Shown here: positions 5,480 to 64,000 of the stretch, one piece after another
How the letters are laid out: each line of letters opens with the position of its first letter
Numbering within the stretch: position 1 is the stretch's first letter
DNA from: Candidatus Heimdallarchaeota archaeon
GTDB lineage: Archaea > Asgardarchaeota > Heimdallarchaeia > Heimdallarchaeales > Heimdallarchaeaceae
Direction of reading: 5' to 3'
Length of the DNA stretch: 64,000 nucleotides
Assembly: GCA_019057815.1 (NCBI GenBank)
Contig: JAHLWR010000006.1
Location: forward strand, 96,001 to 160,000
Program-made: the position numbers and the translations under genes
Notes under the pieces: model-generated
What the model was told of the DNA's origin: nothing
The model's database searches: none
Seen by the model: only the letters and a program-made list of their open reading frames with translations

Positions 5480-6109
5480 TTATAGATAAGAAAGTTCCAG
5501 GAACACAGCTACACCTGAATATTGAAATTGCCCTGCTGTAGTGTCGAAGCTCCACAACTCAAAAACAACTTTAAATTGATTATTTTCTCCTAAAAATTGT
5601 TTTATATTCTCATTTACATATAACGAAATTAATGTAGGTCCCCAGATATAATCTGCTTCAATAGTTTTCGCTACTTCTTTCTCTGCTTTGGTTGCTGAAG
5701 GAAGAATTTTTTCGAAAGTGTTTTGAGCATATAACATGTAACACTCTGAAGGTGGTACAGCGAAATCTAAACTTATTATTTGTGAAAGTTCTGTAATTTT
5801 AACTCGAACTTCGTAATAGTTAACTTTACTACCATAATTTTTCACCATGAAAAATATGGTTTCATTTTGATCTGTATTAATCACAGTAGGATAATTCGTA
5901 GCCAAAAAACTATTTTCTGTTGAATCATACATAAGTAAAGATAATTCAGAAAAATCATTTTCAGGGAGTGAAGTGAAGAAAACCGCAGCAAATGTTGCTA
6001 CAATAACTAAACTAGTGAAAACTATAGCGAACTTTACAATGTTTTCTACTTCTCTTTTTCTAAACATTATTTTTGAATTTTTATTTATGTCCAGTTTAAT
6101 TTTTTTCAT
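5480..6109 (-). CDS. Single-pass membrane protein resembling the C-terminal half of DUF1616
   Basis: One N-terminal TM, then FSELSLL...ATNYP..I and V.N...YEVRVK. Confidence 0.6.
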   Translation of the reverse strand: MKKIKLDINKNSKIMFRKREVENIVKFAIVFTSLVIVATFAAVFFTSLPENDFSELSLLMYDSTENSFLATNYPTVINTDQNETIFFMVKNYGSKVNYYEVRVKITELSQIISLDFAVPPSECYMLYAQNTFEKILPSATKAEKEVAKTIEADYIWGPTLISLYVNENIKQFLGENNQFKVVFELWSFDTTAGQFQYSGVAVFLELSYL

Positions 6110-36194: not shown

Positions 36195-36534
36195 AAGAAA
36201 GGTAAAACAAGAAAGGATAAGTTTCACTGAATTTCAAAAGATGAAATTAAAAGTTGCCACAATTAAACATGCTGAAGAAATAGAAAAGAGTAGGAATTTG
36301 ATTAAACTAATAGTAGATCTTGGAATTGAAGAAAGACAAATACTAGCAGGAATCAAACAATATTACAAAGCTAAAGATCTAATAGGAAGACAGATCGTTG
36401 TTATTGTAAACCTAGAACCTGCAACATTAATGGGAGAAAAATCTGATGGTATGCTAATGGCTGCGGATATTGATGGAGAGCCCATACTACTTCAACCAGA
36501 GAGAGAAGTTCCACCTGGTACACCAATCAAGTAG
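36178..36534 (+). CDS. Stand-alone MetRS C-terminal / Trbp111-like tRNA-binding OB protein
   Basis: ISFTEF.K..LKVA, RQILAGI, VNLEP..LMG..SDGM. Confidence 0.92.
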   Translation: MKMEDKRKVKQERISFTEFQKMKLKVATIKHAEEIEKSRNLIKLIVDLGIEERQILAGIKQYYKAKDLIGRQIVVIVNLEPATLMGEKSDGMLMAADIDGEPILLQPEREVPPGTPIK

Positions 36535-44406: not shown

Positions 44407-44414
44407 AAACAAAG

Positions 44415-46198: not shown

Positions 46199-47998
46199 AT
46201 GAGCGAAAAAGAGGATATTTCGTGGGATTTAACTGGTATGTTCTCCAGTACTGAAGACCCTGAAATCAATGAAACGATGGAAACTCTAGCAAAACGCGCA
46301 GATGATTTCATAATAAAATACAAAGGAAAAATTTCAACTCAAGGTTTTGCTGCAGAAGATATGTTGAAATTAATCAGTGAATATGAAGATTTCCTTGCTG
46401 ATTTGTTCGAAGTAAATCAATTTGCAAGTCTTTCCTTCTCAGCAAATATGACAATAAAAGAAAACCAAGTTTTGTATAACAAATCAAGGGATTTTTCAAC
46501 TACAATACAAAAAAAATTGACATTCATCGACCTTGAAATTGGACAGCTCTTATGCGATAAGGAAGATATGATTTCTGACCCTAAAATGGGTGATTATAAG
46601 CACTATCTTGAGAAATTAAGTAGAAAACACACATACAAATTGTCAGAGGTTGAAGAACAGCTAGTTCTCGAAAAAGATAGGTATGGAGTGCAGGGTTGGC
46701 ATGAAATACAAAGCAAATGGTTGAATACCAGAATGTTCGAAGTTGAAGTCGAAGGCGAACTCAAAAAACTACCTTATGGTGAGGCAAATGGTTTACTTAA
46801 TCATCCTAATAGAGCAACGAGAAGATCAGCGAATAAATCAATATATGGCTTGTTGGGAAAAGATGAAGAAATTTTTTCAACTGCTATTAGGAATATTTGT
46901 GGAGATTGGGTAACTATTGCTAAAAGAAGAAAATATCCTTCGCAAATGGAACAAAGTCTTTCAGCTAATGATGTAGATCAAGAAACCATCGATAATTTGA
47001 TGAAAGCTATCGAAGATCATGTAGTTCTATATCAAAGATATCTAAAATTAAAAGCAAAAATTATGAACCTACCAAAACTCAGTTGTGAGGACGTAATTGC
47101 TCCTTTACCTGATGCTCCACCAACAACTTACACATGGGAAAAAGCTCAGGAACTCGTCAAGAAAGCTTATGGGAATTTTGATGAATCGTTCTTAGAAGTC
47201 GCAAAAGAAATGTTTGAAAAGAGCCATATAGATGCAAGACCAAGATTCGGAAAAAGGAATGGAGCCTTTTGTTCAACATGGTATAAGGGTAAAACTTCTT
47301 TCATTTTACAGACTTTTACGGGGACGCTGGCAAACATCTACACATTAGCTCATGAATTAGGACATGCAGTACATGGGTATAAGGTAACGAGAAACCAAAC
47401 AATAGTAAACGCAAGGTATCCAATGGTAGCAGCAGAAACAGCTTCAATATTTGGAGAGTTATTGTTAACACGGCTTTTGCTAAGTGAAGCCGAAACTAAA
47501 GAAGAGAAGAAAACCATTCTTTCAAGAGTTCTGGACGGAGCGGGAATGGCACTCTTTCAAGTGAGTTCAAGATTGTGGTTTGAACAGAGTATGTACGATG
47601 CAATAGAAAAAGGACAATTTTTGGATGGTAAGACCATATCCAAACTATGGCTGGCAGGGCGAGATAAGGTATATGGAGACGCAGTAGAGTGGTTTGAGGA
47701 AATGGATTGGGAATGGACAATGAAAGGGCATTATTACATGCCTAACTTCAGATTCTACAATTATCCATATGTATTTGGGCAACTGTTTACCTATGCACTC
47801 TATCAAGTATATCAAAAAGAAGGAGAAGCATTCATTCCAAAATTCAATGCGATGTTGGAAGCAGGAGGAAGTAAGTCGCCAAAAAAAATGGCTGAAATGG
47901 TAGGATTAGATATAACAAAACCCGAGTTTTGGTCGCTAGGAATGAAACAATATGAATATTTTGTAAACGAACTAGAAAAGTTAGTAGAAGATAATTAA
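46199..47998 (+). CDS. Oligoendopeptidase F (M3B)
   Basis: WDL, ID..PR.GKR.GAFC, HELGH zincin motif, AETAS.FGE, H.Y...FY.YPY.FG. Confidence 0.95.
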   Translation: MSEKEDISWDLTGMFSSTEDPEINETMETLAKRADDFIIKYKGKISTQGFAAEDMLKLISEYEDFLADLFEVNQFASLSFSANMTIKENQVLYNKSRDFSTTIQKKLTFIDLEIGQLLCDKEDMISDPKMGDYKHYLEKLSRKHTYKLSEVEEQLVLEKDRYGVQGWHEIQSKWLNTRMFEVEVEGELKKLPYGEANGLLNHPNRATRRSANKSIYGLLGKDEEIFSTAIRNICGDWVTIAKRRKYPSQMEQSLSANDVDQETIDNLMKAIEDHVVLYQRYLKLKAKIMNLPKLSCEDVIAPLPDAPPTTYTWEKAQELVKKAYGNFDESFLEVAKEMFEKSHIDARPRFGKRNGAFCSTWYKGKTSFILQTFTGTLANIYTLAHELGHAVHGYKVTRNQTIVNARYPMVAAETASIFGELLLTRLLLSEAETKEEKKTILSRVLDGAGMALFQVSSRLWFEQSMYDAIEKGQFLDGKTISKLWLAGRDKVYGDAVEWFEEMDWEWTMKGHYYMPNFRFYNYPYVFGQLFTYALYQVYQKEGEAFIPKFNAMLEAGGSKSPKKMAEMVGLDITKPEFWSLGMKQYEYFVNELEKLVEDN

Positions 47999-48199: not shown

Positions 48200-48778
48200 G
48201 TGGATTTTGAACAAGAAAATAACAAAGAAAAAATAGTTGAGAACCTTATAGTTAGTATTAACAATGATCTTGACGATGGTCAACTAAAAGAAATTTTACA
48301 AGAAATTATAAATGAGGATGAAAAGGTTGTTTTACAATTTTCAAAGCAAATAGCAACTAAAATTGATCAAATAAGTAATCTTGACAAAATTGGTTTTTGT
48401 CTTTCCGTTCTTAGTTTAAAAAGTAAGTTGGTATCCTTTTCTGTAGTCAATAATATTGATATTGAAATACTAAAAAATAAAATAGATCAAAATAACATTT
48501 TTAGAATAAGAGACTTAATAATCGCAATAATTAAGATAAGTGAGGAAATAGCCTTACAATTAGTAGGGAATTTGGCTAGGAGAATCGATCAAACGAAAGA
48601 CATGGTGGCTATAGCTTACTGTATTTGCGATATTGAGAAAGTGAGTGAAAAGGTAGCATATGCACTAGTTGACCAAATAGACTTTGAACGTAACTTGAAG
48701 ATGATGAAAGGGAAGGGAGATATTGAACATTTATCTAATCATAAAGGTGGTCACTACTATGTAAGATTTACTGAATAA
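48200..48778 (+). CDS. Helical repeat (HEAT-like) hypothetical protein
   Basis: Three roughly 35-40 aa units starting (K/R)IDQ; AGGTG RBS. Confidence 0.6.
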   Translation: MDFEQENNKEKIVENLIVSINNDLDDGQLKEILQEIINEDEKVVLQFSKQIATKIDQISNLDKIGFCLSVLSLKSKLVSFSVVNNIDIEILKNKIDQNNIFRIRDLIIAIIKISEEIALQLVGNLARRIDQTKDMVAIAYCICDIEKVSEKVAYALVDQIDFERNLKMMKGKGDIEHLSNHKGGHYYVRFTE

Positions 48779-48871: not shown

Positions 48872-51800
48872 TTATTTTCTTGATATTCGATCCCATTGTT
48901 TCATAAATTCTTGAACATTAACCCAAGAAATGATCCATCTAGCATTAGATAATGCGTTCTTATTAGTACCAAATGTTGATTGAAAATCATCAAACATTTT
49001 AGACATTGCATTAAATTTATCGCTGATACTTGCTCTTGCTCCTATTTCTCGTAATGATTCCCAAGCATTTACTAGAGCCATCCCTGTCCATAGTTCAAAC
49101 TTATTCCATGGTGTAGTATTGTCATTTATTGCTTTAAGTTGTTTTTCTGAACGTACTAATTCATATAACACATGGTAGAACTTTGCAGTCTCCGAAACCA
49201 CAAATCCTATTTCTCGTCCATTTGCATCTTTTCTTATTAATCTGTTTGGAACCGTTGCAAAGGGGTTTAGTGCTAATTGTATCGCTTTCAATATATTATA
49301 TTCTGTAGTATCTTTTGCAGTATCCTTAATTTTTTCGTCAATATACTCAGCATAACTTAACTTCTTTTGTGTTGATGCTTGTCTGACAGTTTGTCTATAA
49401 TACTCTATAGCAATACTTTCCTTATTTGTTGCTAATTTAACAAAAAGTGGGGTATCATCTTTCCAAACTATCACGTCTTTGCCAAATTCCTGTTCCATTA
49501 TACTTCTACTCACTGGTCTCCATTGTCCCCCATTGGTGATAGCATCATATATTCTGGATATGAATGGGGCGATAAGAATGTTTGCTAGTTTTTTATATTC
49601 AAGTTCATTTAAGATTGAATCTGGACCTCTTCCGAATGTATATCCGTGCTGACCCATACGCATTATTTCTACTATTATATCAATCATTTCTTTTATTGTT
49701 TTAATTTGATCTGTATTTGATATATATTTACCTTCAGAATAATATCTTTTATTAGATAGATAGATTTGGAGGGCACCCTTTAATTCGATTTCATTATCGA
49801 GTATGTCCCTAACAGTTAACTCTTGGGGTGTTAACGTCCCTTTATATATATCATATGTTTGTTTTATTTTCTCATGTGCGTTCTCTTTATTGAAATAATA
49901 AGGCCCAAATTTGCATCTTCTTGGTATTTCATCTTTTAACAGAGCATATTTTAATAACCTCCTCGCACCAGGTATTGACCAACCTAATCTCGTGGGGCTT
50001 CCTTCTTCAGTTTGTGTTCTGAAAGGAGTATCAAATGGCATTTCACCATCATTTCCAAAACTTATACTTTTTGTTTCTATGTTTTCTATTGCATTGATAA
50101 TATACTGATCTAAGGTTCCACCCTTATTATACTCTTTTAAGTATTCTAGTTTTATTATATTAGTACCTTCGGTTTGTATATACTCTTCATTACTTGTATA
50201 AACTTTTGGAGCGTTACTCTTAGTCATTTGTGACATATGTGATATTAAGTCATCTAGACAGATTCGGTCTTCTTCTCCTATTTTTCTCTTTGATATTTCA
50301 AGAAATTGCATAATATTCCCTTGAGAGTTTCTAACCACTATACATTGCGTACTACCACCTGCATACAGTGTTGTTTCAGCTAATCTTATTAAAAGAACAG
50401 TAGATGATACTGCACTTACAAGATTATTTATTTTTCCCATTTCTTCTAATTTCTTTATTTGGTCTTGGAACCTTTTGTTTGTAGTTCGCATATGGGTATT
50501 TTCACTATCTATATTTTTTGTCGATATAGTGATTTTTTCTCCCAACATTTGGTCCATTTCCGAGTCAAAATCCAACGAACCTTGGACATTCATTAACATT
50601 TTATCAGTAGTACTATAGCGTCCTACACTGCTAGTATAGTCAGTAAAAGCATTTGCACCATAAAGAAGTTCTGCTCTAGTCCTTCTACTGCTTTGTGGTG
50701 TTTCAAACATCCCATTTTCATTCGTTTGACGTTGTAATAGTAATGATGTATGTGTATCTACATTTGGTGAATAGTCAAGGTCGGAATGAGCTTTATGTAC
50801 TGTTTCAAACAGATTTAGTTCCCATCCTCTTCTAGTGTTTACGTTATCATAGTAACCATTTGTAAGTCCGTTAATCAATCCTGTTATCATTTGTCTCTCA
50901 AATTGTTCATTTATTGCCATATATTGTTTCGCTACAGAAGATATAGCGGGTAAGTTATTTTCCATGTTTATATCTAGCACTGTTTTTAATTCATCGATTA
51001 TTTGTGCTCTTAGGTTTTGTGCACTATCAGCTAACCACACACTTCCATCTTGTTTGAAAGTATAGTACTTTCCACTTTCTTCAGCATAAAAAATTGCAGG
51101 CGTAACTTGGTATTTTGTTCCATCTTTTGATTTAAATTCTAGTACGTTTCTATGTGTAGGATTGTTTGAACGAACAAATGATTCAGCATGAAGATTTATG
51201 CTTGATGTCTTACCATCAAATTCTACTTCAGTTATCTCTGTAGTTGTACCTGGTAATCTTATTGAATAGACTTCAGTATGGGCTCTATATTTTATCATGT
51301 CAATGTTTGTGCCTAGATTGTCCGAAGAATGAGAAAGATGGAGTCTATAATCGCTGGGGGTTCCTCCGCTATCATACTCAATGATAAAACCATTTTCATC
51401 CCTAATAGGAGCTAATTCTCCTTGTGCAAAAGCGGTTAAATCAGATATAATGGCTTGTTTTTGTAAGTGTTGAATGATATTATACCCAGCATCCGCGTTT
51501 TTAGCATCTAATGCAACAATAAGATCTGCTACTGTCCATCTATTATTTTTTCCTGGGAAGACATCGTATTCTCTCTGTACTGTACCTATAATATTTTTTG
51601 TGTTTAGTGTTCCACCATTAGGTGTAGAATATTGTTTAACGAATAATTCATTTTTTTCTGTTACGCCATATATTATACCCGCATGTCTTAAGAAAGATTG
51701 TGCATCTAGAGATAATTCATTCACAAATATGGTGTTTTTAGTACCAGTCAAATCACTTATGCTGTATTCACCTGAATAACATTTAGCTTCAACGTTTATC

Positions 51801-54800
51801 ATAACATCAATTTGTTCATAAGTTATTGTTGTCTTATGTGTTTCAGAATTATAATGATATGTAGGAATAAGCTTCTTACCTGCTATGAACGCATCTTTAC
51901 CTTGTTTTTCTCCATGATATTTTTGGTCATCGGTTTTTTCAAACAACCATTTCAAGGATTCTGTTGTAACTCTTCCTGTACCATCTACTTCGAAAGAAGG
52001 AATAATATCAGTAACTTTACCATTTTCATCAACTACAGCTCTCAACCAAGGACTTATCAAATCGTTTGAAGGCAAATCTTTTTCCGCACGATCGTGAATT
52101 GTATGTTCGACTTTTTCCATCATTTGTTGTTTTAGAAGTGGTTCTTGTAAGACCATCATATCTCTGTAGAAAGTTGATGCAAAATGTATCTTTTCTTTAG
52201 AACCAGTATGTTCGAATCTGAACTCATAATAAAGGTTCATCATTTCCTGTACTAGGTTTCTAAAACCTATCTTATATATATCATTAGTATTGTATTTTTT
52301 ACTTTTTTTAACCCATTCAATAAAATCTTTATATCCAGCTTGTTCTGATTCCACCCATTTTCCAAACTCCTTCATAGAGACTTTCTGACCAACATTGTTT
52401 AGAAAGTCGTCAGTGATTACTTGTTCGAGATCTTGAGCTTTTTTAATAATGTATAACATATCAAAGAGAGGGGTATTTTCATAATCCTCTGCAGAAGACC
52501 ATTTTATGAAATTATTAACAGGAACATTTCCAGGTATTATTTTATCAAGAGGAATTAGAACCCTACCATCACTTGTAGTTATGAAAGAAGATTGTTTAGA
52601 TGTAGTATCTTTCATTATCCAAATATTTAGAAGTTCATCTTCTGGCTTTGTTCCTGAATCTTCCCAATACCTTTCATGTGCAGACATCCACTCTTTCGTA
52701 ATGTCTCCCTTTTTAACAGTATCTCGAAGCTCTTGAATATACGTTTCGTCATAGATTATTCCACGTGAGGTTACACTTCTAAGATACTGTAGATAGAAGT
52801 TCAGTCTTTCTCTTTCACAAATAGACTCTTTAAAAAGTTCTTTATAAGTAGGCCTTTTTGGTTCACTTTCATCTACAGGATTAACTTTATAGTTTTCTAT
52901 TTCAATACTGCCATCTGTAGGAACATCTGTATTCAAACTAAATTTATAATTAGGTGGTGGTACGTAATGATCCCAATCTTCAATTTCTATACCAAGAGTG
53001 GGCAAGATACTTTCTAGTTCACTTATATCTTGGAGATCATACATCCATTCCATGACATTATGGAACCAGAAAGTATGACCAAATGATTGACCTAATTTCC
53101 AAGCATTATTTCCTCTTAATTTCTGAGGATCCATTCCTGAAACTATTCTCGCTAGTTTTGTCTTGCTCAATGGACGCATCTTGCAGAAAAGTTGTAATCC
53201 AGTCATAACAAGAGCTTCAGGAAGTCCCATTACCCCTCCTAAAACTTTTTGATAAAGCATTTGAGGGAGAAATATACCCCAATTAAGAAATTGCATTACT
53301 GCACTGGCTGTTAGAAGGGAGTAGAGTTTCCTATTTCTAATGGTTTTTTGAATATTCTTGTTGTTTTCCCAAACATCAGAAATAGTTTCGAATCCATCTC
53401 TCACTATCTTCCTTTGGGGATGAACAGGAACAGAAAGTTTAGGAGACAAACCTAAATCTTTCATATCCTCAGTAACTTGACCCATGTATTTCCTCCATGC
53501 TTGTCCATCTTTCAGCTGTTGTTGTAAGACGTTTTGAGCTTCTGCAATTGGATCAGGACCACGACTGACTAATGCAGCAATATCTCCAGGTATTTGAGCC
53601 ATAGCAAGTCTTCGATAAAAATCATCAGGATCAAGGAACATATCTCTGATATCTTGCCATAAAGCAATAATGTCGAATTTAGCTAGAAACATTTCCATTA
53701 CTCCCATAAAAGTAGACTCTCCCATTCCAAGACCAAAACCTCCGGGAAGTATGGCATTATCACTTAATCCCATAAACCACTCATAATGCCAAGTAGAGTC
53801 AGGATTTGATTCATCATCATAAACTTTGTAAATGACTATATCAGATTCTCTTACTGTTCCATCGGGAAGATAATTAGAGGAATTGTTCTTGGTGAAAGGA
53901 ACATAAATAGAACTTGTATTAGCGCCAACAGTTTCACTAATGGAAACCACAAATCCAAGATTGCGTAAAAGTTCAGCTGCTGCTGCAACACGCGTATCAT
54001 TACTCTCCCAATGTTCGTCATCATAAAAACCGATTTCATAATTGCCATTACCTTGTTCTTTTTGAACATACAATCGTGCAAAATTAACTAAAAGAGCCAT
54101 AAAGGCGTTTTCTTCTCCCACTTGCCATTCATGAGAACCAAAATGTTCGTCAACAAATTCAACGTTATGAGCTCTATAATTTAAATGTAATAGTTCATCA
54201 GTATTGGAATTAACAAATGGATATTCATAAACACTTGAACCCCCAGTACATCCCCCGATCGTCAAAACCCAAAACAGTAGAAAAGTAAATTTTCTAAGTA
54301 TAGCTAGTTGAGTATCAGCATCACCGGACATAGATTTAACACCTGCTTTAGCCCATCCAGCAATGGCTTTCCAAGCAATAGTTAATTTCTTCCAAATATT
54401 CTGGAAGAATCCAGAAACACTCTGCCAAGAACGTTCGGCTACACCTTTCAAATAAGCCATTTTATTGTTGAAACTGAGTTCATGGGAGAACAAAACATTA
54501 AATGTTGTTGTAATGAACTTCCAAGCATCAGAGAACCAAGCAACTATTTTATCAATCATCACTTGGAATTGGTAAGTTAGCCCCTCAGCTATGAAATTAG
54601 GATAATTGAGCATATCAAGAACGATCATCCCTACAAAGAGAGCTCCTTCAATCCACAGACCTATAACAAAAGCACTACCTATCATCCCCATAAATGGTAA
54701 CCCAACAGTTGCTAAGTATGGACATACAACAAATCCTACAAGATAAGTAACAAACATTAATCCTGCCATAATCGCATAAGCATCCTTATGTTCCCAAATG

Positions 54801-57800
54801 TTCTGCCAGAAGGTGCTATTAGGAGTGAATAATTCATTAAAGATGAATTTAAAGGCGTTAAAAACTTGTTTTATAGGACAAAGGACTTCTCGTTGAATAA
54901 AATCATGTAATTGTCTATAAAGAGACTTACTTAAAGCTATGAAAGCACCGAAATAGTCGATACTTGTAAGATATTCACTGAGTGTTATACAAGCTTTTGA
55001 TAGAGTTTGTGATGGAGAAAGTGGTCGTGAATCAACATCGTCTACAGTGATATCAGTAATAATAAACAAACCAGTGGAGCTTAATATAGCATCTCCATAA
55101 GAGGATGAGACAGATATTGAAGCTTTACCTATTTCATAAGCGAGAGCATTGCTCCCATATAGAATATGTAGTTGTTTAGTAAGCAAATTTATAGTTATAA
55201 CTCTATTATGGAGAGTTATTCGCATCTGAGAGCCGGAAAAATCAGTGAAGGAGCCATTTTTAATGGTAATTGTAAAACTATCCTTAATTCCCAAATGAAC
55301 ATGTTGCTTGCCTACATCCCAAATTTCAATATCTACAACATTTTGTAGTTCAATATTCATACTGCTTCCAATACTTTGAATATTGAAATCACTTTCTTGA
55401 AGTGTTAAAACGTTAGAGCTTTCGCCCGTAATAGTATTAACAGCTTGAGAAACAAAAATCTCAGTATAACCTAAAATATGTGAATTGTAAGTAGAAGATT
55501 CTAACCCTAAACTCTTCATTTTCGCTAAAGAGTTAGTTTCAAGACCACAAGGAGCAGTGGATTGAACTTCTACCTTCTGAATATATATCTCTTGAGCTTC
55601 ATGATTGGTGGATTGATCATAAATAATTGCTGCAACTACATATCCAACCTTATCAGTATCATCATAATCAGCGACACCTATCCACACCATTCTTGTAACA
55701 TGAAACATGAAACCATCGTAATTGACACTGGAATAGAGATAATCTTTAGAAGTATAAGGTCGTCTAGCAACGTCTGTAGTAGAAGAATAGGGGATGTTTA
55801 ATCCGCCTTTATATTCATCTAGAACTAGATATAACCTGTTTTGTGAGAGTTTTTCAGAAAGGTCCAGACTATAATCGGTAGGACCAGCAAAGGGTATAAT
55901 AGCATCAGTTAATCCTTCAATAGATATAGAGAAGTTGAGAGTTTCACTATTAATTCTATTTAGGAAGAAACTGAAAGAATGGAAACCCTTTCTATGCCAA
56001 GAAGTATTGAAAGTATCTCCAAGATAGGAATCATAAATAGAATAAGGTTCTCCCATTATTTCAAGTTTGAATTTATCATTAGTATCTGTAATAGGAAGCA
56101 AAGTATCAAAAGAAGTACCATTATATGCTGTGGGATAATGAATAGCGACACCATCAACAAAAATAGCAGCAAGTTGATCAATATTTAAGTTAGAATGTAG
56201 TATAAATGAGTAAGGATCAACTATATCAGCTAAAAGGTAGAGATAGAAGGTACATAAAATTTGAGAGTTGTTATCATATTCTTCGATATCTCCAAGAGAC
56301 ATAATATTCCCATATTCGTTGATTTTAGAGCGCTCAAAATATACTTCTGCTTTTGAAACATTGTTAACTAATATATCTCCAGGAAGAGGAACAGCTCGTT
56401 GTAAGAAATCATAAATTCCAAAAGACATAGAATTATTATCATAGAAATTGATCCATGGAGAACCATTGGGTGCCCATTCTCCTTCCATATCAATCCAAGT
56501 ACTAGGTGTAGAGACAACATATTCTGGTATGAAAGTGTTATTTAGTTCATCTCTCTGTAGTTCAATTGAGTTTAATTGAGGGAGAAAGACATGGTCAAGA
56601 ATAACATCTACTTGGAAGAATAGAGTGGTATCAAGAGAGATATTCTGCATACCATGATTCATGACTCTGAAGATAAACCTGGATAACCCACCATAGACAT
56701 GAATTGGAAGAATATGTATTACACTATCATATTCTCCCAGAATAGGTGGTTGATAAGAATACATCGTTGGGATAAGTAGTTCAAATTCCATATTAGTATT
56801 AATGACAAGTGAACCATAACATTCAGAGACAGTTTTAGTCGTGAACGAAAGATAGAAGGAAGTATCGTTTCCAGGATAAATATTGAATAAATCAGTGAAA
56901 TCAATTCTTCCAAGATTATTTGCAGAAATCTCCTTCCAATGTGAAGCAACAGGCATAGATACGCTCTCTAAATCTTCTGAAGGCCAAACAGCTGCAGGAG
57001 GAACATAGAGAGCAAAATTATCAACAAAAATAGAAGAACCAGTATTTGCTGTAATAGAGAGAGGGTAACTTCCAAAAGAGGTATATTTAGCAATGGTATA
57101 ACAATTCTTAACTAAAGCCATGGGTTCTGATGCATCTAATTCTGTAAGGAGATCAATTAATTTAGATTCTCCAACAGGAAGATATTCAACATATTGAAGA
57201 TAAGTGGTAAAAAGAGATTGATAATGGTGCCAAGAATCATCATCAACGATAGTATCATAGATTCTTACGAGTTGATAATCATTAAAACCTTCAGTGTAAA
57301 TTTGCTTATCTAATGAGCTATCTCCTGAAAGAACAAGTTCAATTAAGAGATTCCTTGAATCGTAGTTATAATCATTAATATACATAGCTAGAGTAGGAAT
57401 AGAGATAATAATACTGTCCCCATTTGGGATCTTGTAGTAAATCTCTAATGCTGTAGCTGGTTTGATGTCAAGAATGAAATCACAATAATTATCACCGTTG
57501 AATAACTCTGTTACATTCCCCATTGTTTCATCATTTACAATTGAGATAATATACTCTTCAGGTGAATTGAAATCTATTTTATATATAGAATCGATTAACT
57601 CATCTACATCTTCATCAGGAGCTGTATACAACCAGTCGGTTATTGGTATAGACTCTCCTAAAGCCAACCTATCGAGTTCAATAAGGTTATCAAAATGTAA
57701 AGTATACAAATGTAACCCTACAGTATCAAAATTTTGTAAACTTATTAATATTGGATGGAAACTTGCCATAGGTGAATATTTAACCATTTTTTCACCTATT

Positions 57801-60800
57801 AATTGTCCATCACCATAGACAGTTATCTTTGTAGGACCTAGTAAGGGGTTGGCAAAAACTTGTAAATAACATGTAGTATTAGAATACTCATTAGAGAAGA
57901 GGGGTTCATTAAGTTGGGTGTCATATACCCAATTATCCATATTACAAGTGGTGAAATAACTATTAAGAGTATCAATAATAACTTCTGCTAGAAAGAGCAT
58001 TCCTTTAGTAGCAGATATTTCAATATCGTAGAGATATCCTTCAATAAGGGTAGTATTTTCAGTGAAAGACCAACTTATAGGTTCTTGTGAGTTTTTGGTC
58101 GTGTCGATAATTGTTAATTCTTGATGTGTTTGATTGAAAGAATAAGATAGATCGTAAAAATGCTCATTTAAAAAGATAAAATCTAAGTAACTATTATTGA
58201 AATAGAGATAATTATCAATAATAGAGATGTTGAACAGATTTAAACTATTATAAGAACTAATAAAACTTGCATCAGTGGTACCGTTCATAAGGAATAGAGC
58301 ATTAAAAATATTAAGTGTTGCATTATACATGGTGTAAGTAGAAGAGATAGAGCTCTCATCTAGTAATAAGGAATATTTGCTATCACCTTTCAACCAGTAA
58401 GAAACTTCTCCAGCACCCCATAGTCCTCTACCATAAGCGTAGACCAAGTCACTTGCTTGCATTTTTCCATTTGAAATGTAATCAATATATGCTAAACTAT
58501 TAACAGTTGAAATGGATAATCTTACATCTGCAACAGAATCCATACCAAACATGCCTGTATAATACTTAGTTTCCCGATGTTCATAATCACCGGCTTTCCA
58601 GACAGTAAAAATCACATCTCCGTGATTTACACTAACAGCAACAAAATAGGGTTTATCATATTCGTTAGGATTAATCTCATAAAAGGCATCAACGGTTCTG
58701 TAACCAAAGAAATCTAAACTATAAAGATGATCATCAACATAAGTTCCCCATCCATATCTACTGAAAATAATTTCCCTTTCTTGACCAAGGTTATTTTCAA
58801 TAGCAATCTTGATGTATTTTTCTTTGTCGAAGGAAACAATATTTTGTTGAGGGTTAAGGATTGAAATTATAAAGTTTGTATCGGTATTATCTTGATAAGG
58901 TGTTTCAATAGTTCCATCTAACCACAATCCATCACTTGAAACATGGCTTGAGCCACTATTAAGGTTGACATAATCTCCTGAATCGTTAGCTAAAAGGGGT
59001 GAGATAGAAAGGTAATTGTAAGTGAAATTAGTATTGTTAGCATACAAACCTATTTGTCCTTTACTTCGCATGTCGTAATCTATTTTACTATTATCACCGA
59101 ACCAACCATTATGACACTCATATATTCCATCGTCCAAATATTGAATTTCTAATAATTCTTCAATACCATATCTGGGATAAGTTCTATAAGTCTTAGCGAA
59201 GATATTTAGACTTATTCCTGTTTCTGAAAAAGTTTTAACAATTGTAAGTTTTAAGGGAACTATTATATCTTTATTACCATCAAACGAATTACCAAGTTTA
59301 GTTATTTCATTTAGATACAGGATATCATAAGATGAATCAGAATAATATCTTGCAACGATTAATGACACAGGATAAGTCCAATCATCATAACTGTAGCCTT
59401 TTACAGTAAAACCGACGAAAATGGAATCAAAGAACAAGTTATCTGGATCGCTTTCAGGAATATTAATCATTATTCCTGCTGTAGAATTGTAATAATTCCT
59501 CGGATATACCCCCATTTCAAGTTGTATAACACAATCACCGTAGCTTTGAGTGTTAAGATAAGCAGAAGAATAACCCGTTGAACTATTTTGAACAAGAACA
59601 TAATCATTATTCGAATACATAAAATCACCATAAGTTGGGACGAAGTTATGGTCATATTCTAATTTATCAGGTTCATCAAAATTAAAGATATGTGGAGAAG
59701 TGTCTATATTTTCAGTGATAAAAGATATTTCATCAATAGAAACCATCATGGTTTCATTCACCACAATAGAATATCCACTAATTTGTTGAATGTCATATTT
59801 ATTCAATTCAATTACATCACTAGTAACAAAAGAGATATTTTGACTTTCAATCTCGAAAATAACCTTATCGGAAGTGCCAACAAACATGAATTTGTAAGGA
59901 TTAGTAAAACTGAACTCTTTTTCAAGTTTAATGGGACCTCTTAAAAGAAGATTACCGAAAATTACGTCATCATCGGTAGGGGGTATAAAGACTTTATCTA
60001 ACAAACACATGAATATAGTGATATCCGTTTGAGCCATGAATCCATAACCATATCCAATGAACGTAGAAAGCCAATTTTCGTAGAACATTAGAGGATTAGT
60101 GATTATTAAGTCTCCATGTTCAGTTTCATTGTATTCGACTCCTTCAAGATTGACATATCCTCCTACCCATTCTCCTATTGATGATGGAAGACTTGAAGCA
60201 TTAACTAACCAAGTAGCTTCATATTGATCCATACCTATATCCATACCAAACGAACTAATGTTAATCGCTACAGAACCACCTATTTGTGCAGAATCAATTA
60301 GTCTCCCGCTAAATTTCTTATAATCATCATATGTTAGTAAATGAAGCGAACCGTCCTCATCAACTCCTCTCATAAAGGGTTCTGTACCTACCCATAGCAA
60401 GTAGTTTCCTACATATTGCCATTCTTCCAAAAGAGTTGTAATAAAAGGTCTTCCAAAATGGTCATAGATGTAATATTCTTCTATTAGTTTTGTAGGAATC
60501 TCATCAAAAATAGTAAGAATAACTTGTTTATTAATATTAATCGAATTATTAAACCACTGGATAAATTCTGGATCGTCAGAGTCGAAAGAAATAACTGGGA
60601 CTTCATAAAGTGATTGGATCATTGTAACAAAATCTTGTTCTTCAGCATATCTTTCAGGTGTGCAATGACTTCCAAGCAAAAACGTCAAAATAGTATTAGT
60701 ACTATAGTGCACTCCAACATCTGCTATTGAGTCAACGGTTGATACAACAGAAGAATCGTCGTAATGGAGGTAATTATATCCATAGATTTTGTATATCATA

Positions 60801-63800
60801 AAGTTGCGTAGAAAGATTTTACACGGAGATGTAACCTTAATTGTTATTTCCCCTAAGAGATTATTTGTGAAGGGATAAAGGATCTCGTAAAGATTTTTCT
60901 TAATTGAAACAAAACCTAATGTAGTATCAATATTTGGAGTTATATCAAATGTCATGTTTTCGATAACAAGATAAATTGTTCCTTCAGGGAATTTTTCCTC
61001 TGTCATAATATCAAAGGAGAAAAAGGGATAATTGCTTACATTAAGAGGAGGGATATGCAAAGTTGCTTGGCAAGTTTGTGTAGTTGTGTGATCAATAATC
61101 ATAAGATTGTTGGAAAATTGAATTTCCATTCCAGATGCTGTCCAAAGTGAACTACTAAGTGTTTGTTGAGATAGAAAAATCTCTTTTGTCCACACAGACT
61201 CATCCCATCCAGTAGGAGAAAGATAGCCTTCGAACTCTTCTTCCCATCCAAACATATCAGAAGAATAAACATAATCCTCTTCAGCCTCTGCCCATGATTG
61301 AGGATAGCCTGTTTCCAACATGTAAAGACTGATGGGGATCATTCTATCAATACATATTATTACCTCAAACAATCCATTGTACCCTATAATCATTAATGAA
61401 TGAGTGTAAGTGTCAATATCATTATCCAAGAAAATTATGCCACCAACAAAATAAGCACTATTGATATCAAAAGACTCTCCAATAGGTAGCAAATAGACTA
61501 ACAACTGTAACCTTTCTGTGATATTTTCAAAAGAATAATAGTTTGACAGTGCAGTTATGCTTAATTTTGTTTCTTCCTCTATCCACATATCATAAGAAGC
61601 AATAAAGTTTTGTTCTGTGGGTATTTCCCTACTTAATAATCCTGTCTCATCTTGTTGAGCAGTATTAATCATGATATTACTGATGATAAATTCGTTAGGT
61701 GTAATTATTCCAGTATAAGGAGCAGCTTGAGTGATTCGTAATCCGAAAATGTCAGAATGTAATGAAGGAAGAGATTCTAAATCATAATCAAATGTTTCTG
61801 ATACAGGTATGAAATAATCTCCTCTACAAATCGCAAAAAGAAGATTATCTCCCTTTCTAGCAAACCTAAACCATTTATTTACCTCTGTTATACCATCATC
61901 CTCGTAAGATAAGACAAGTTTGTCATATAGATAGATATCAACTTGTAAAGTGTCATTAAACACCATTAATATCGTAAATACTGTTTGATAAGAATTATCT
62001 AAGAGTTCAATTTTTAAAATCCCAATATTATTATATTCAAGATCGACTAAGGGTTTAAAAGATAGGATAAAATCTTCGACACATATAATATCTTTGAAAT
62101 AGCTTCTACCTCTAAGTCCTTCTGAAGGAGTGTTGAAATTGAATAGAGTTTTAAGTCCTCCAGAATGAGAAAAGGGAACATCATCTGTTGATGTTTCACC
62201 ATAGGTATGAGTTGAAAAGTCATCCATAATTACAAAATCAGTTTCATATATTCTTGGAACAAATTCTGCAACAGTTATTGGAGGAACAGGGTTAGAAACA
62301 GGCATATTTCTTGCATTAAGATAAATTGCATCAATTAACATCGTATGAGCCGTGTAACTTTTAGCTAATTGTTTGAGTTTTATTCTATCAATATTAATAT
62401 TTTCTATTTCATTAGTATATTCGAATATTTTATTGAGTTGATTAGAGGAAATATCGCTGTATATGGAAAGAGTATTCCCTATTCGTTCAATACGAAAAAC
62501 GTTTTGATCAAGTTTTTGACTTGTAACGTATGTATCTTGTTTAATTCCATCAATTAATAAAATGATTTCTATACTACTTTGAGATGTGGATATTATATCT
62601 AGTTGGAATAAATTGTGATGACGGATGGAATTTTCTAATACTAAAGATATTATTCCTTCCGAACCATCAAGTAGAAAAGATAATCTTATATCAAAATAGA
62701 AATCTCTCTGGAACGAGTGTTTGTAAGAGTAAGTGTTGCCATACCAATTACTTTTGTTCACTCCAAAATCAGTTAGAAGTTTTGTTCCATCGATAAGTGA
62801 ATAACTGTTAGTATAATATCCAATACCATTTACATCCCAATTCAAGGTTTGAAAATGGTCATTAATAATGATATGTCCATCAGACCAAGGAGATAAATAA
62901 GCATTAGCAGCAGAGTCACTAAAAACAACATTCCCAAAGGCGAAGGTAATAGGATTATTAGAAGGGTTTGTGGTAATCTCAAGTTTAATATTGTTTATTG
63001 CCTCACTGTTTGAACTTATTGAAATCATGGGTTCAAGCGAATATAAATGCAAAATGTCCGAATATAGCACAACAGATGTTCCACTTTTTGTTATTCGTAG
63101 TGTATTGTAATTTAATATAGTTTTATCAAGAGTAATGGTACTTGTATCAGTATTAGACTCTAAAGTGAATATCATATTTGTTCCACTAAAAACAACTGTA
63201 AGTTTAAGTGTTTCATCATTTAATAAAAGCCTAAATTGTCCAGTATTTAAGTTGGCAATAGCACTCATTAATATATCAATTGTGAAATCGGTATCAGAGG
63301 CATTAAGATTTCTAGTAAATGTTACATTTGCTGTAGTAAGTGAAGGATTAGTGGGAATAATATATAATAAGTCATCTTTATTGCTAATTGAAAAATCTGT
63401 TTCTGCACAGTTTGTATATGTTTCTTCCCATATACCTGATAACCATGCTGGATAAAGATCATCGTTGAATATTGTATTAATGGAAGATGTTTCATAACCC
63501 ATCTTATAATAATATTCGTCAATTATAAGATCGTTAACATAAGCATCGATATAAGGAGTATTCTCATAAGCTGTTTGTTTAAGTTTTATTTCATCGAAGA
63601 TAAGTTCACTAAAAGATAAATCTATAGTAACCAAATCACTCCATGAATCCCTATCATAAAGACTTATTTTACAATCATATTCTTCTTTTACTATCCTGAC
63701 AACATAGTTTAGTATTTTGTTCTCTATTATGTTTTGATAAACGATGGTTTCACCGTGATGTATCATAAGATATGTAGCTTTTGAATTCTCATCAGCATCC

Positions 63801-64000
63801 TGTAAAGTAATCGATATGACATCGTTTCCTCCAGAACTAAGAATAAATGTTTGTTTTCCTTTAAATGCTGGGTATTCTTGTAGTACATCAAAACCATATT
63901 CAATAATTAAATTAGGTGAAAAAGCTTCTTCATGAGTAAGTTCTATACCGTGCCACCCTGTACCATAATCAAATGAAGGTATCAATTGGGAGTTAGATAA
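48872..64000 (-). CDS. Giant (>5040 aa) multidomain membrane/surface protein, 5' end outside the window
   Basis: Frame stays open to base 64000 (…LSNSQLIPSFDYG…); lectin-like repeats, central TM cluster, long hydrophilic C-terminal region. Confidence 0.9.
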   Translation of the reverse strand, partial: LSNSQLIPSFDYGTGWHGIELTHEEAFSPNLIIEYGFDVLQEYPAFKGKQTFILSSGGNDVISITLQDADENSKATYLMIHHGETIVYQNIIENKILNYVVRIVKEEYDCKISLYDRDSWSDLVTIDLSFSELIFDEIKLKQTAYENTPYIDAYVNDLIIDEYYYKMGYETSSINTIFNDDLYPAWLSGIWEETYTNCAETDFSISNKDDLLYIIPTNPSLTTANVTFTRNLNASDTDFTIDILMSAIANLNTGQFRLLLNDETLKLTVVFSGTNMIFTLESNTDTSTITLDKTILNYNTLRITKSGTSVVLYSDILHLYSLEPMISISSNSEAINNIKLEITTNPSNNPITFAFGNVVFSDSAANAYLSPWSDGHIIINDHFQTLNWDVNGIGYYTNSYSLIDGTKLLTDFGVNKSNWYGNTYSYKHSFQRDFYFDIRLSFLLDGSEGIISLVLENSIRHHNLFQLDIISTSQSSIEIILLIDGIKQDTYVTSQKLDQNVFRIERIGNTLSIYSDISSNQLNKIFEYTNEIENINIDRIKLKQLAKSYTAHTMLIDAIYLNARNMPVSNPVPPITVAEFVPRIYETDFVIMDDFSTHTYGETSTDDVPFSHSGGLKTLFNFNTPSEGLRGRSYFKDIICVEDFILSFKPLVDLEYNNIGILKIELLDNSYQTVFTILMVFNDTLQVDIYLYDKLVLSYEDDGITEVNKWFRFARKGDNLLFAICRGDYFIPVSETFDYDLESLPSLHSDIFGLRITQAAPYTGIITPNEFIISNIMINTAQQDETGLLSREIPTEQNFIASYDMWIEEETKLSITALSNYYSFENITERLQLLVYLLPIGESFDINSAYFVGGIIFLDNDIDTYTHSLMIIGYNGLFEVIICIDRMIPISLYMLETGYPQSWAEAEEDYVYSSDMFGWEEEFEGYLSPTGWDESVWTKEIFLSQQTLSSSLWTASGMEIQFSNNLMIIDHTTTQTCQATLHIPPLNVSNYPFFSFDIMTEEKFPEGTIYLVIENMTFDITPNIDTTLGFVSIKKNLYEILYPFTNNLLGEITIKVTSPCKIFLRNFMIYKIYGYNYLHYDDSSVVSTVDSIADVGVHYSTNTILTFLLGSHCTPERYAEEQDFVTMIQSLYEVPVISFDSDDPEFIQWFNNSININKQVILTIFDEIPTKLIEEYYIYDHFGRPFITTLLEEWQYVGNYLLWVGTEPFMRGVDEDGSLHLLTYDDYKKFSGRLIDSAQIGGSVAINISSFGMDIGMDQYEATWLVNASSLPSSIGEWVGGYVNLEGVEYNETEHGDLIITNPLMFYENWLSTFIGYGYGFMAQTDITIFMCLLDKVFIPPTDDDVIFGNLLLRGPIKLEKEFSFTNPYKFMFVGTSDKVIFEIESQNISFVTSDVIELNKYDIQQISGYSIVVNETMMVSIDEISFITENIDTSPHIFNFDEPDKLEYDHNFVPTYGDFMYSNNDYVLVQNSSTGYSSAYLNTQSYGDCVIQLEMGVYPRNYYNSTAGIMINIPESDPDNLFFDSIFVGFTVKGYSYDDWTYPVSLIVARYYSDSSYDILYLNEITKLGNSFDGNKDIIVPLKLTIVKTFSETGISLNIFAKTYRTYPRYGIEELLEIQYLDDGIYECHNGWFGDNSKIDYDMRSKGQIGLYANNTNFTYNYLSISPLLANDSGDYVNLNSGSSHVSSDGLWLDGTIETPYQDNTDTNFIISILNPQQNIVSFDKEKYIKIAIENNLGQEREIIFSRYGWGTYVDDHLYSLDFFGYRTVDAFYEINPNEYDKPYFVAVSVNHGDVIFTVWKAGDYEHRETKYYTGMFGMDSVADVRLSISTVNSLAYIDYISNGKMQASDLVYAYGRGLWGAGEVSYWLKGDSKYSLLLDESSISSTYTMYNATLNIFNALFLMNGTTDASFISSYNSLNLFNISIIDNYLYFNNSYLDFIFLNEHFYDLSYSFNQTHQELTIIDTTKNSQEPISWSFTENTTLIEGYLYDIEISATKGMLFLAEVIIDTLNSYFTTCNMDNWVYDTQLNEPLFSNEYSNTTCYLQVFANPLLGPTKITVYGDGQLIGEKMVKYSPMASFHPILISLQNFDTVGLHLYTLHFDNLIELDRLALGESIPITDWLYTAPDEDVDELIDSIYKIDFNSPEEYIISIVNDETMGNVTELFNGDNYCDFILDIKPATALEIYYKIPNGDSIIISIPTLAMYINDYNYDSRNLLIELVLSGDSSLDKQIYTEGFNDYQLVRIYDTIVDDDSWHHYQSLFTTYLQYVEYLPVGESKLIDLLTELDASEPMALVKNCYTIAKYTSFGSYPLSITANTGSSIFVDNFALYVPPAAVWPSEDLESVSMPVASHWKEISANNLGRIDFTDLFNIYPGNDTSFYLSFTTKTVSECYGSLVINTNMEFELLIPTMYSYQPPILGEYDSVIHILPIHVYGGLSRFIFRVMNHGMQNISLDTTLFFQVDVILDHVFLPQLNSIELQRDELNNTFIPEYVVSTPSTWIDMEGEWAPNGSPWINFYDNNSMSFGIYDFLQRAVPLPGDILVNNVSKAEVYFERSKINEYGNIMSLGDIEEYDNNSQILCTFYLYLLADIVDPYSFILHSNLNIDQLAAIFVDGVAIHYPTAYNGTSFDTLLPITDTNDKFKLEIMGEPYSIYDSYLGDTFNTSWHRKGFHSFSFFLNRINSETLNFSISIEGLTDAIIPFAGPTDYSLDLSEKLSQNRLYLVLDEYKGGLNIPYSSTTDVARRPYTSKDYLYSSVNYDGFMFHVTRMVWIGVADYDDTDKVGYVVAAIIYDQSTNHEAQEIYIQKVEVQSTAPCGLETNSLAKMKSLGLESSTYNSHILGYTEIFVSQAVNTITGESSNVLTLQESDFNIQSIGSSMNIELQNVVDIEIWDVGKQHVHLGIKDSFTITIKNGSFTDFSGSQMRITLHNRVITINLLTKQLHILYGSNALAYEIGKASISVSSSYGDAILSSTGLFIITDITVDDVDSRPLSPSQTLSKACITLSEYLTSIDYFGAFIALSKSLYRQLHDFIQREVLCPIKQVFNAFKFIFNELFTPNSTFWQNIWEHKDAYAIMAGLMFVTYLVGFVVCPYLATVGLPFMGMIGSAFVIGLWIEGALFVGMIVLDMLNYPNFIAEGLTYQFQVMIDKIVAWFSDAWKFITTTFNVLFSHELSFNNKMAYLKGVAERSWQSVSGFFQNIWKKLTIAWKAIAGWAKAGVKSMSGDADTQLAILRKFTFLLFWVLTIGGCTGGSSVYEYPFVNSNTDELLHLNYRAHNVEFVDEHFGSHEWQVGEENAFMALLVNFARLYVQKEQGNGNYEIGFYDDEHWESNDTRVAAAAELLRNLGFVVSISETVGANTSSIYVPFTKNNSSNYLPDGTVRESDIVIYKVYDDESNPDSTWHYEWFMGLSDNAILPGGFGLGMGESTFMGVMEMFLAKFDIIALWQDIRDMFLDPDDFYRRLAMAQIPGDIAALVSRGPDPIAEAQNVLQQQLKDGQAWRKYMGQVTEDMKDLGLSPKLSVPVHPQRKIVRDGFETISDVWENNKNIQKTIRNRKLYSLLTASAVMQFLNWGIFLPQMLYQKVLGGVMGLPEALVMTGLQLFCKMRPLSKTKLARIVSGMDPQKLRGNNAWKLGQSFGHTFWFHNVMEWMYDLQDISELESILPTLGIEIEDWDHYVPPPNYKFSLNTDVPTDGSIEIENYKVNPVDESEPKRPTYKELFKESICERERLNFYLQYLRSVTSRGIIYDETYIQELRDTVKKGDITKEWMSAHERYWEDSGTKPEDELLNIWIMKDTTSKQSSFITTSDGRVLIPLDKIIPGNVPVNNFIKWSSAEDYENTPLFDMLYIIKKAQDLEQVITDDFLNNVGQKVSMKEFGKWVESEQAGYKDFIEWVKKSKKYNTNDIYKIGFRNLVQEMMNLYYEFRFEHTGSKEKIHFASTFYRDMMVLQEPLLKQQMMEKVEHTIHDRAEKDLPSNDLISPWLRAVVDENGKVTDIIPSFEVDGTGRVTTESLKWLFEKTDDQKYHGEKQGKDAFIAGKKLIPTYHYNSETHKTTITYEQIDVMINVEAKCYSGEYSISDLTGTKNTIFVNELSLDAQSFLRHAGIIYGVTEKNELFVKQYSTPNGGTLNTKNIIGTVQREYDVFPGKNNRWTVADLIVALDAKNADAGYNIIQHLQKQAIISDLTAFAQGELAPIRDENGFIIEYDSGGTPSDYRLHLSHSSDNLGTNIDMIKYRAHTEVYSIRLPGTTTEITEVEFDGKTSSINLHAESFVRSNNPTHRNVLEFKSKDGTKYQVTPAIFYAEESGKYYTFKQDGSVWLADSAQNLRAQIIDELKTVLDINMENNLPAISSVAKQYMAINEQFERQMITGLINGLTNGYYDNVNTRRGWELNLFETVHKAHSDLDYSPNVDTHTSLLLQRQTNENGMFETPQSSRRTRAELLYGANAFTDYTSSVGRYSTTDKMLMNVQGSLDFDSEMDQMLGEKITISTKNIDSENTHMRTTNKRFQDQIKKLEEMGKINNLVSAVSSTVLLIRLAETTLYAGGSTQCIVVRNSQGNIMQFLEISKRKIGEEDRICLDDLISHMSQMTKSNAPKVYTSNEEYIQTEGTNIIKLEYLKEYNKGGTLDQYIINAIENIETKSISFGNDGEMPFDTPFRTQTEEGSPTRLGWSIPGARRLLKYALLKDEIPRRCKFGPYYFNKENAHEKIKQTYDIYKGTLTPQELTVRDILDNEIELKGALQIYLSNKRYYSEGKYISNTDQIKTIKEMIDIIVEIMRMGQHGYTFGRGPDSILNELEYKKLANILIAPFISRIYDAITNGGQWRPVSRSIMEQEFGKDVIVWKDDTPLFVKLATNKESIAIEYYRQTVRQASTQKKLSYAEYIDEKIKDTAKDTTEYNILKAIQLALNPFATVPNRLIRKDANGREIGFVVSETAKFYHVLYELVRSEKQLKAINDNTTPWNKFELWTGMALVNAWESLREIGARASISDKFNAMSKMFDDFQSTFGTNKNALSNARWIISWVNVQEFMKQWDRISRK

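Follow-up and report, generated by a model that had tools for sequence, protein, structure and literature searches.

The 64,000-nucleotide stretch analyzed here (positions 96,001 to 160,000 of contig JAHLWR010000006.1 of a Candidatus Heimdallarchaeota archaeon; G000:C16:96001-160000 in our labels, with G000 the source genome; hereafter the window) contains most of a gene for a giant protein of 5,978 residues (P0002). Comparison with its homologs shows a conserved front of 4,600 residues and, past one fixed boundary, a tail of about 1,380 residues that diverges or is exchanged as a whole, and this tail is further set apart by its avoidance of N-glycosylation sites. Twin giants, named Otus and Ephialtes, have been described from the aloposons, elements of Ca. 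Heimdallarchaeum endolithica and Ca. H. aukensis (Wu et al. 2022; PMC8813620). Of the two giants encoded by a cassette of the aloposon type, the present one is the larger and lies downstream; the copy of the cassette on contig C16 has lost its ParA module.

Examination of window positions 48872-64000 confirmed one uninterrupted minus-strand frame of 5,042 codons that is open at the window edge, as claimed by an earlier, sequence-only reading of this DNA (a single open reading frame of at least 15.1 kb coding for more than 5000 residues). That reading had proposed extending the contig, and doing so recovered the complete coding sequence (CDS) of 17,937 bp (G000:C16:144872-162808). Its ATG start lies at C16:162808, directly after an in-frame stop and 2,808 bp past the window end, and the encoded N-terminus combines a basic stretch with a hydrophobic helix (aa 15-38) in the manner of a Sec-type signal or anchor. 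The zones described earlier are real, but the residues then taken as the first are not the N-terminus, the true one lying 936 residues further up; hence 936 has to be added to the earlier residue numbers to obtain the full-length numbering used here. Random stop codons are expected at ~7.5% at a GC content of 33%, which excludes a frame of 5,042 codons arising by chance (~e^-460 by our own estimate). Together with a ratio of nonsynonymous to synonymous divergence (dN/dS, or omega) of ~0.1 over aa 1-4500 against the ortholog in a congeneric genome (G001), this rules out a chance reading frame or a pseudogene. By this comparison the gene of the 5,978-residue giant is functional and under purifying selection.

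The proposed search for a conserved N-terminus joined to a swapped C-terminus was positive, revealing a sharp break near aa 4600. Across the family, identity per 150-residue window is 25-68% over aa 1-4650 and 13-37% over aa 4650-5978. Against the G001 ortholog, aa 1-4600 are 93-100% identical (81% in one 100-residue window), with dS ~0.12, dN ~0.015 and omega ~0.1, whereas aa 4600-5978 are 50-92% (mostly 50-85%) identical, with dS 0.38-0.67, dN 0.14-0.29 and omega 0.3-0.5, so that the tail dS is 3-5 times the front dS. The drop in identity starts within G001 contig C44 and is therefore not a binning artefact. Two other paralogous loci repeat this break: 1) the paralog on contig C39 of the source genome is 81-100% (mostly >90%) identical to its counterpart on G001 contig C114 up to aa 4585, and 38-75% identical thereafter; 2) the Aloposon2/3-type giants of Ca. 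H. endolithica (G007) and of a sister-species genome (G004) are 89-100% identical up to aa ~4200 and 43-77% identical beyond it, dS rising from about 0 over the first 1,000 codons to 0.9-1.3 in the tail. Taking the three loci together, dS is 3-10 times higher in the tail, at an omega of 0.2-0.5. Such raised tail dS combined with omega below 1 indicates that older tail alleles have been recombined onto a shared body, as opposed to a simple relaxation of constraint.

A second signature of the tail is its near lack of N-x-S/T sequons, of which it has one against 12.2 expected (z -3.8). Three homologous tails have 1, 3 and 2 sequons against 11.9, 12.8 and 11.2 expected, respectively, and the observed-to-expected ratio (O/E) across ten family tails is 0.00-0.34. 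As controls, 519 cytoplasmic proxies from the source genome gave an O/E of 0.98 and secreted proxies 1.4, while the lowest value among 165 cytoplasmic chunks of 1,378 residues was 0.14. With an O/E of 1.0 for the ectodomain, the tail is the sole avoider among the regions tested. Selection of this kind would be understandable only if the tail encounters the glycosylation machinery outside the cell and has to be left without glycans.

Three compositionally distinct zones can be recognized along the protein (Table 1), in agreement with an earlier description of a Tyr/Ile/Asn/Ser/Asp-rich, beta-type region, a set of Gly-rich hydrophobic helices and a K/E-rich, globular-looking last part of ~1400 residues. 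The five residues named for the first zone make up 41% of aa 39-4008 (K+R 5.4%, D+E 13.6%). The Gly-rich helices are borne out at aa 4009-4600 (Gly 8.1%), with hydrophobic segments at 4011-4064 and 4168-4186 and weaker ones near 4352-4385 and 4498-4543. K+E amounts to 15.6% of aa 4601-5978 (K+R 12.1%). The compositional part of the description hence stands, and the terms beta-type and globular draw only on low-confidence AlphaFold secondary structure. Profile comparisons revealed three diverged domains of ~200 residues in tandem within the ectodomain, with a marginal match to a fourth at aa 1560-1770; none of these has a match in Pfam, including its lectin families, and BLAST self-comparison of the giant did not find the internal repeats. 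The only confidently modelled piece, just before the membrane module (aa ~3800-3900), resembles phage spike beta-helices at noise level (Z 7.6-7.9).

Based on charge and hydropathy, the predicted order after the ectodomain is a hydrophobic cluster (aa 4010-4067), a stretch of Trp-rich basic amphipathic helices on the inside, a helix ending in IGGC, an acidic, ectodomain-like loop of ~160 residues (aa 4191-4350), a conserved core, basic stretches, a hydrophobic pair and finally the tail. A classical lipoprotein reading of the internal conserved IGGC motif was considered and rejected, as the predicted topology does not settle it. The core is the only stretch common to this giant, the more distant giants on contigs C7 and C38 and the Aloposon2/3-type giants. 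Searches of Pfam, NCBIfam, PHROGs and PADLOC with the whole giant and with ten ectodomain slices of 200-380 residues recovered just one weak match, between the tape measure profile phrog_58 and aa 3980-4165 (E 0.003), confined to the hydrophobic Gly-rich helices. A sequence search of the PDB gave no match, a search of the ESM Atlas with the tail gave no usable match, and a word-index protein search matched only the own-genome paralog.

Table 1. Features of the giant gene and its adjoining genes, in window positions (aa, residues of the full-length protein).
Feature	Window positions	Strand	Remarks
Giant gene, 3' 15.1 kb of the 17,937-bp CDS	48872..64000	-	Continuous frame; dN/dS ~0.1 against the G001 ortholog
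Ectodomain, aa 39-4008	54785..64000, continues past the window	-	Acidic, N/S/T/Y-rich; sequons at expectation (48 vs 46.8)
Tandem domains, aa 935-1560	62129..64000, continues past the window	-	At least three diverged ~200-aa units; in-register cross-matching profiles, independent E-values 1e-6 to 5e-4
Modelled piece, aa ~3800-3900	55109..55411	-	Sole confidently modelled piece (predicted local distance difference test, pLDDT, 66-84); series of short, regular beta strands directly ahead of the membrane module
Membrane module, aa 4009-4600	53009..54784	-	Hydrophobic cluster, amphipathic and signal-like helices, acidic loop, core and a second hydrophobic part (a pair); weak phrog_58 match
Hydrophobic cluster, aa 4010-4067	54608..54781	-	Predicted 2-3 membrane passes; conserved in four homologs
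Signal-peptide-like helix, aa 4168-4190	54236..54307	-	Preceded by R/K; lipobox-like IGGC end kept in C16, G007, C39 and G005
Family signature core, aa 4342-4434	53507..53785	-	E..F....E ... AL.QD.RD ... F.R ... IP.D
DHYVPPP motif, aa 4613-4619	52952..52972	-	Last shared motif before the break; DHYEPPV at the same aligned place in the C39 paralog
Polymorphic tail, aa 4601-5978	48875..53008	-	K/R-rich, no hydrophobic segment; break in identity and dS against G001
192-aa ORFan adjoining the tail	48200..48778	+	Convergent; in G001 just a 44-aa relic with a stop
Peptidase M3, last gene of the stable flank	46199..47998	+	In G001 followed after 115 bp by an intron-bearing tRNA (empty site)

The gene is the last of a minus-strand run that codes, in order, for proteins of 105 and 155 residues, a 921-residue subtilase (Peptidase_S8, E 3e-40) with anchors at both termini, a 3,157-residue giant and the 5,978-residue giant. 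The genes of the two giants overlap by 4 bp (ATGA), and the larger giant is translationally coupled to the smaller. The latter is type-I anchored, starting with a signal peptide and ending in an anchor followed by a basic tail, and its ectodomain has the composition of aa 39-4008 of the larger protein (K+R 0.05, D+E 0.14). Downstream of the pair lie the convergent 192-residue ORFan and genes for a peptidase M3, a coiled-coil protein, a CitMHS permease, a WD40 protein, NMD3 and MetRS; the upstream side has a divergent PadR-like gene and then genes for defence-type HNH, HEPN and Mrr-STAND proteins. Defence-type genes by the cassette (HNH, HEPN, Mrr-STAND NTPase, HNH_2 and AbiV) span C16:176728-189297 (L003/L004) and C43:266068-270122 (L045). 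The permease, of the CitMHS/ArsB type, is followed after 8 nt by a gene for a 562-residue protein without a Pfam match (window 42940-46103). MetRS occupies two frames (572 and 118 residues; window 34476-36534), compared with a single 698-residue gene in G007, which reflects either a genuine split, a frameshift or a misassembly; in both genomes it is found 9-13 kb away from the cassette.

The trio of a subtilase, a giant of ~3,200 residues and one of ~6,000 residues is also found on contig C39 of the source genome and in G007. The larger giant aligns with its 6,099-residue counterpart in G007 at 44% identity over 5,814 residues (aa 20-5684, with an extra weak stretch at 5739-5895), with the C39 paralog at 33% end to end, with a giant of another genome (G005) at 36% over aa 19-4606, and with the G001 ortholog at 94% over aa 1-5284. 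The near full-length alignment to the G007 protein and the core signature place it by homology among the Ephialtes-type giants. The link to aloposon giants that the sequence-only reading had drawn was thus right at the level of homology, given this 44% identity to the Ca. H. endolithica giant and the conserved trio. Contigs C7 and C38 of the source genome code for more distant tandem giants whose shared part is just the core near aa 4325-4557. A profile of the core recovered 12 matches among 1.84 billion representatives, those with names being from Heimdallarchaeaceae or Hodarchaeales, and matched 9 of the 301 sampled genomes of the phylum, all of one order. The gene itself is present in 7 of the 29 sampled genomes of the family, source genome included. 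Across these samples the giant family is confined to a few Heimdall-group genomes.

Aloposons were defined by tandem genes coding for 3,000-6,000 residues, a downstream tRNA site and four upstream genes including MinD/ParA, and the supplementary files give no coordinates for them (PMC8813620). Like the aloposons, the C16 copy has tandem overlapping giants of about 3,100 and 6,000 residues, homology to the giant in a ParA-carrying insertion of Ca. H. endolithica, the same host family, a patchy spread and a changing chromosomal position. Unlike them, it is without the MinD/ParA gene and its 202-residue companion (tblastn of C16), having the 105- and 155-residue genes and the subtilase upstream instead, and the 48 kb downstream of the giants contain no tRNA. 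Neither the window nor the 26 kb of contig past the gene gave a tRNA in ARAGORN, and window 30000-64000 gave none in Rfam; an integrase was not found for this copy, and att-like direct repeats around the block and the repeat motif of G007 gave only chance-level matches. As it lacks two of the three defining features, the C16 copy is a variant of the aloposon kind. Canonical ParA-bearing copies exist in the same genome on C39, C7 and C38, which tblastn with ParA recovered at 79-100% identity. At the C39 locus ParA is accompanied by the 202-residue gene, and a tRNA-His lies 1.8 kb downstream. C7 and C38 have this gene pair at 69-83% identity, with the companion of 202 residues (69-71% identical) after ParA, and the pairs lie upstream of giants that share <25% identity. 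ParA-like genes were located at C39:79751-81272, C7:49631-51023, C38:184256-185609 and C8:20986-21804, with 58-83% identity to the C39 ParA (58% for C8).

The G007 ortholog, with ParA about 5 kb upstream, lies inside a 39.5-kb segment (G007:C1:2397950-2437530) that is not in G004, where the flanks of the insert map to adjoining, overlapping positions. This insert is bordered by an imperfect direct repeat of ~45 bp (TTTTGTCCCGTTTT, about 15 nt, CTTTTAAAAATTTTTC; L015:2951-2994 and L017:2480-2526), ends 77 bp after the giant stop and codes for PD-(D/E)xK, Dna2-like, PadR-like, winged helix-turn-helix, ParA, DUF4145 and Mrr proteins, the subtilase and both giants. HeimV2 is a different element, having been placed between the 16S rRNA gene and tRNA-Arg(TCT) (PMC8813620). 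G007 also has a short dispersed repeat of ~110 bp (L015:1279-1389), with at least 14 copies at 91-97% in G004, and one of ~300 bp (L015:10633-10925) with at least 9 copies at 71-73%.

A 31.3-kb block (C16:144834-176177) is common to the source genome and G001, and it stands at different sites in these two congeneric genomes: both flanks of the cassette differ, the downstream flank in G001 being syntenic to contig C38 of the source genome, and nothing of C16:176178-182000 was found in G001. The G001 cassette retains a 100-bp relic of the 202-residue gene. At the empty site in G001 the peptidase M3 gene is followed by the intron-bearing tRNA (Rfam 54.6 bits; anticodon CCA by eye) at G001:C30 (L038:3452-3560), which was detected by Rfam and missed by ARAGORN. 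In the source genome this tRNA is on contig C43, beyond the upstream side (C43:265620-265731; L045:3620-3731, minus strand), and the ends of C16 and C43 probably join. Between the coiled-coil gene and M3 in G001 lies a 1.5-kb insert (L038:1-1500) that resembles an insertion sequence and is matched by several contigs of the source genome at 80-89%. We read the C16 copy as a decayed, ParA-less derivative inside a variable island. As to the suggestion that the giant may be element cargo, mobility is shown only indirectly, by the different flanks in the congeneric genome, and ParA, an integrase and a downstream tRNA were not found at this locus.

Tentatively, we place first a reading in which an adhesin arm is followed by a membrane module and by a polymorphic tail that would be exported. 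Two independent signatures in the sequence speak for it, namely the fixed joint and the sequon avoidance. Under this reading the Sec signal would place an acidic, beta-rich ectodomain of ~3,970 residues outside the cell as a contact or adhesion arm, and the hydrophobic module of ~600 residues would anchor the protein and might form a conduit. The tail, cytoplasm-like in composition, would be made inside the cell and later cross the membrane, possibly after cleavage by the subtilase near the boundary, its avoidance of sequons keeping it glycan-free during the passage. Once exported, it might act on neighbouring cells as an effector, or be used in their recognition, in a manner specific to the strain. 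A bolder form of this proposal, to which we give distinctly less credence, is a single-chain system for contact-dependent delivery, in which an arm of 4,000 residues and a conduit would export a strain-specific, glycan-free tail of ~1,400 residues to neighbours. This would make the giant a mobile-element-borne archaeal counterpart of the contact-dependent inhibition (CDI) and Rhs systems of bacteria, shuffled at one joint.

Several observations weigh against the favoured reading, which is weakened in that neither a toxin fold nor an immunity gene was found and that the membrane-module topology is predicted from hydropathy and charge only. No toxin, nuclease or enzymatic domain was detected in the tail or in seven homologous tails (Pfam, NCBIfam, PHROGs, PADLOC and PDB sequence searches). 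A PD-(D/E)xK nuclease call for the tail was rejected: four homologs share a conserved G.DA ... E.K motif, but the model has a low-confidence long beta hairpin there and no fold speaks for a nuclease. The AlphaFold2 models of aa 4780-5978 and aa 3560-4660, built on alignments of 6-7 rows, are both poor (mean pLDDT 41.1 and 41.2), and structural searches recovered generic helical hairpins only (Z <=8.2; best Z for the tail 6.0), such that no fold was assigned or is claimed from them. The tail alleles are homologous over their full length (59% identity to G001) and evolve under purifying selection, and the tail of ~1,380 residues far exceeds, to our knowledge, known delivered toxin domains. No conserved partner or immunity gene was found downstream: the 192-residue convergent ORFan is unique to the source genome and decayed in G001, nothing equivalent lies by the G007 or C39 copies, and the C39 neighbours differ. 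Of the binding, insertion and effector layout put forward by the sequence-only reading, the three-part organization holds, the tail break was recovered and the sequon avoidance fits an exported cargo, while no toxin or enzymatic fold was found. It had stated that end-to-end conservation of homologs together with a C-terminus without an enzymatic fold would argue against a toxin; conservation breaks near aa 4600, and the searches and poor models gave no enzymatic fold for the tail.

Among the competing explanations, the one that survives best, if still unlikely, is a surface receptor or adhesin made of one giant chain: its ectodomain would recognize a partner cell or a substrate, and its variable tail, staying in the cytoplasm, would link that contact to intracellular partners specific to the strain. 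The K/R-rich composition of the tail (K+R 12%), cytoplasm-like and free of hydrophobic segments, would fit such a permanently cytoplasmic domain and to that extent also counts against export. The same holds for a free-standing, soluble tail homolog of 1,207 residues in G005 (G005:C41:16662-20285; L047/L048; 32.5% identity to aa 4984-6208 of the G005 giant), which has neither a signal peptide nor a hydrophobic segment, has no sequons against 8.8 expected, and is encoded by itself in an ordinary chromosomal context among genes for a glycosyltransferase, ABC transporters and LRR proteins. The continued homology and purifying selection of the tail alleles agree with it too. However, cytoplasmic proteins of the source genome do not avoid sequons and every tail does, and a cytoplasmic receptor domain leaves the sharp recombination boundary and the deep allelic divergence unexplained.

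We consider it rather improbable that the giants and the subtilase are machinery of the mobile element, building a cell-cell bridge or an entry-exclusion device by which the aloposon would be spread or protected, with element specificity set by the tail. The giants are a constant cargo of elements that have no recognisable integrase or transposase (PMC8813620), and the dS of about 0 over the first 1,000 codons of the Aloposon2/3-type giants, between species at 88% average nucleotide identity, points to recent transfer; the weak tape-measure-like matches in the membrane module could also be accommodated. Against this, no DNA-handling domain was found in or beside the giants at the C16 locus, and the strong purifying selection on this ParA-less copy speaks for a function at the level of the host. 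A structural envelope or surface-coat protein, with a tail that varies from weak constraint, appears slightly less probable again: the large, acidic, beta-rich and repeat-containing ectodomain and the anchored partner giant would suit it, but the gene is patchy in the family as well as multi-copy and diverged within one genome, the raised tail dS indicates older alleles and not relaxed constraint, and sequon avoidance indicates selection on the tail. Least credible of all is a proviral origin, with the giant as a structural protein of a virion or tail-like particle, comparable to a tail fibre or a tape measure. The phrog_58 match would suit this, as would a distant family member (P0014; source name 'phage tail protein') for which 11 tape-measure PHROGs gave matches, the best at E 5e-10, and the tail-fibre predictions by machine learning that were reported for HeimV2 (Wu et al. 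2022; PMC8813620). Against it, the 31-kb block has no capsid, portal, terminase or other virion genes, no tail genes lie nearby, the matches are limited to the hydrophobic Gly-rich helical stretch, and the Sec signal and polytopic module are in keeping with a protein of the cell membrane.

The aloposon giants rank with the largest proteins of archaea, and we found no function proposed for them since 2022, the original paper being the only one found that names Ephialtes. The joint fixed in three paralogous loci and the avoidance of N-glycosylation sites by the tail alone now give handles on these proteins, both pointing to a tail that crosses a membrane and differs between strains. Heimdall-group archaea are close relatives of eukaryotes; if the favoured reading is true, there would be contact-dependent, allele-specific interaction between cells in the archaeal lineage nearest to them. 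The ParA-less copy under strong purifying selection further suggests that the host may retain the cassette after the element module decays.

In relation to known systems, the published account of aloposons gives no function, topology or tail polymorphism for the giants (PMC8813620). With tape measure proteins (PHROG 58, 4200 and 1272) the membrane module shares Gly-rich hydrophobic helices followed by Trp/Phe-periodic amphipathic helices and weak profile matches; unlike in those proteins, a phage context is absent, the match (E 0.003) extends over <200 of the 5,978 residues, and a Sec signal and a giant ectodomain are present. CdiA, Rhs/YD and MafB are contact-dependent or polymorphic toxin proteins, and the toxin tips of CdiA and Rhs are unrelated between alleles. 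The giant has no sequence similarity to these families, its host is a single-membrane archaeon, and its tip of ~1,380 residues has homologous alleles, retaining 13-37% identity even to G007, C39 and G005. It also differs from them in having no recognisable toxin fold, no conserved co-directional immunity gene, and no two-partner, type VI secretion or other known export partner, its partners being the second giant and the subtilase. Like CdiA, Rhs and MafB, however, it is a very large exported protein with a conserved front, has a hydrophobic region that separates the binding part from the tip, and changes at a fixed boundary to a C-terminal piece that differs between close strains and carries older allelic lineages.

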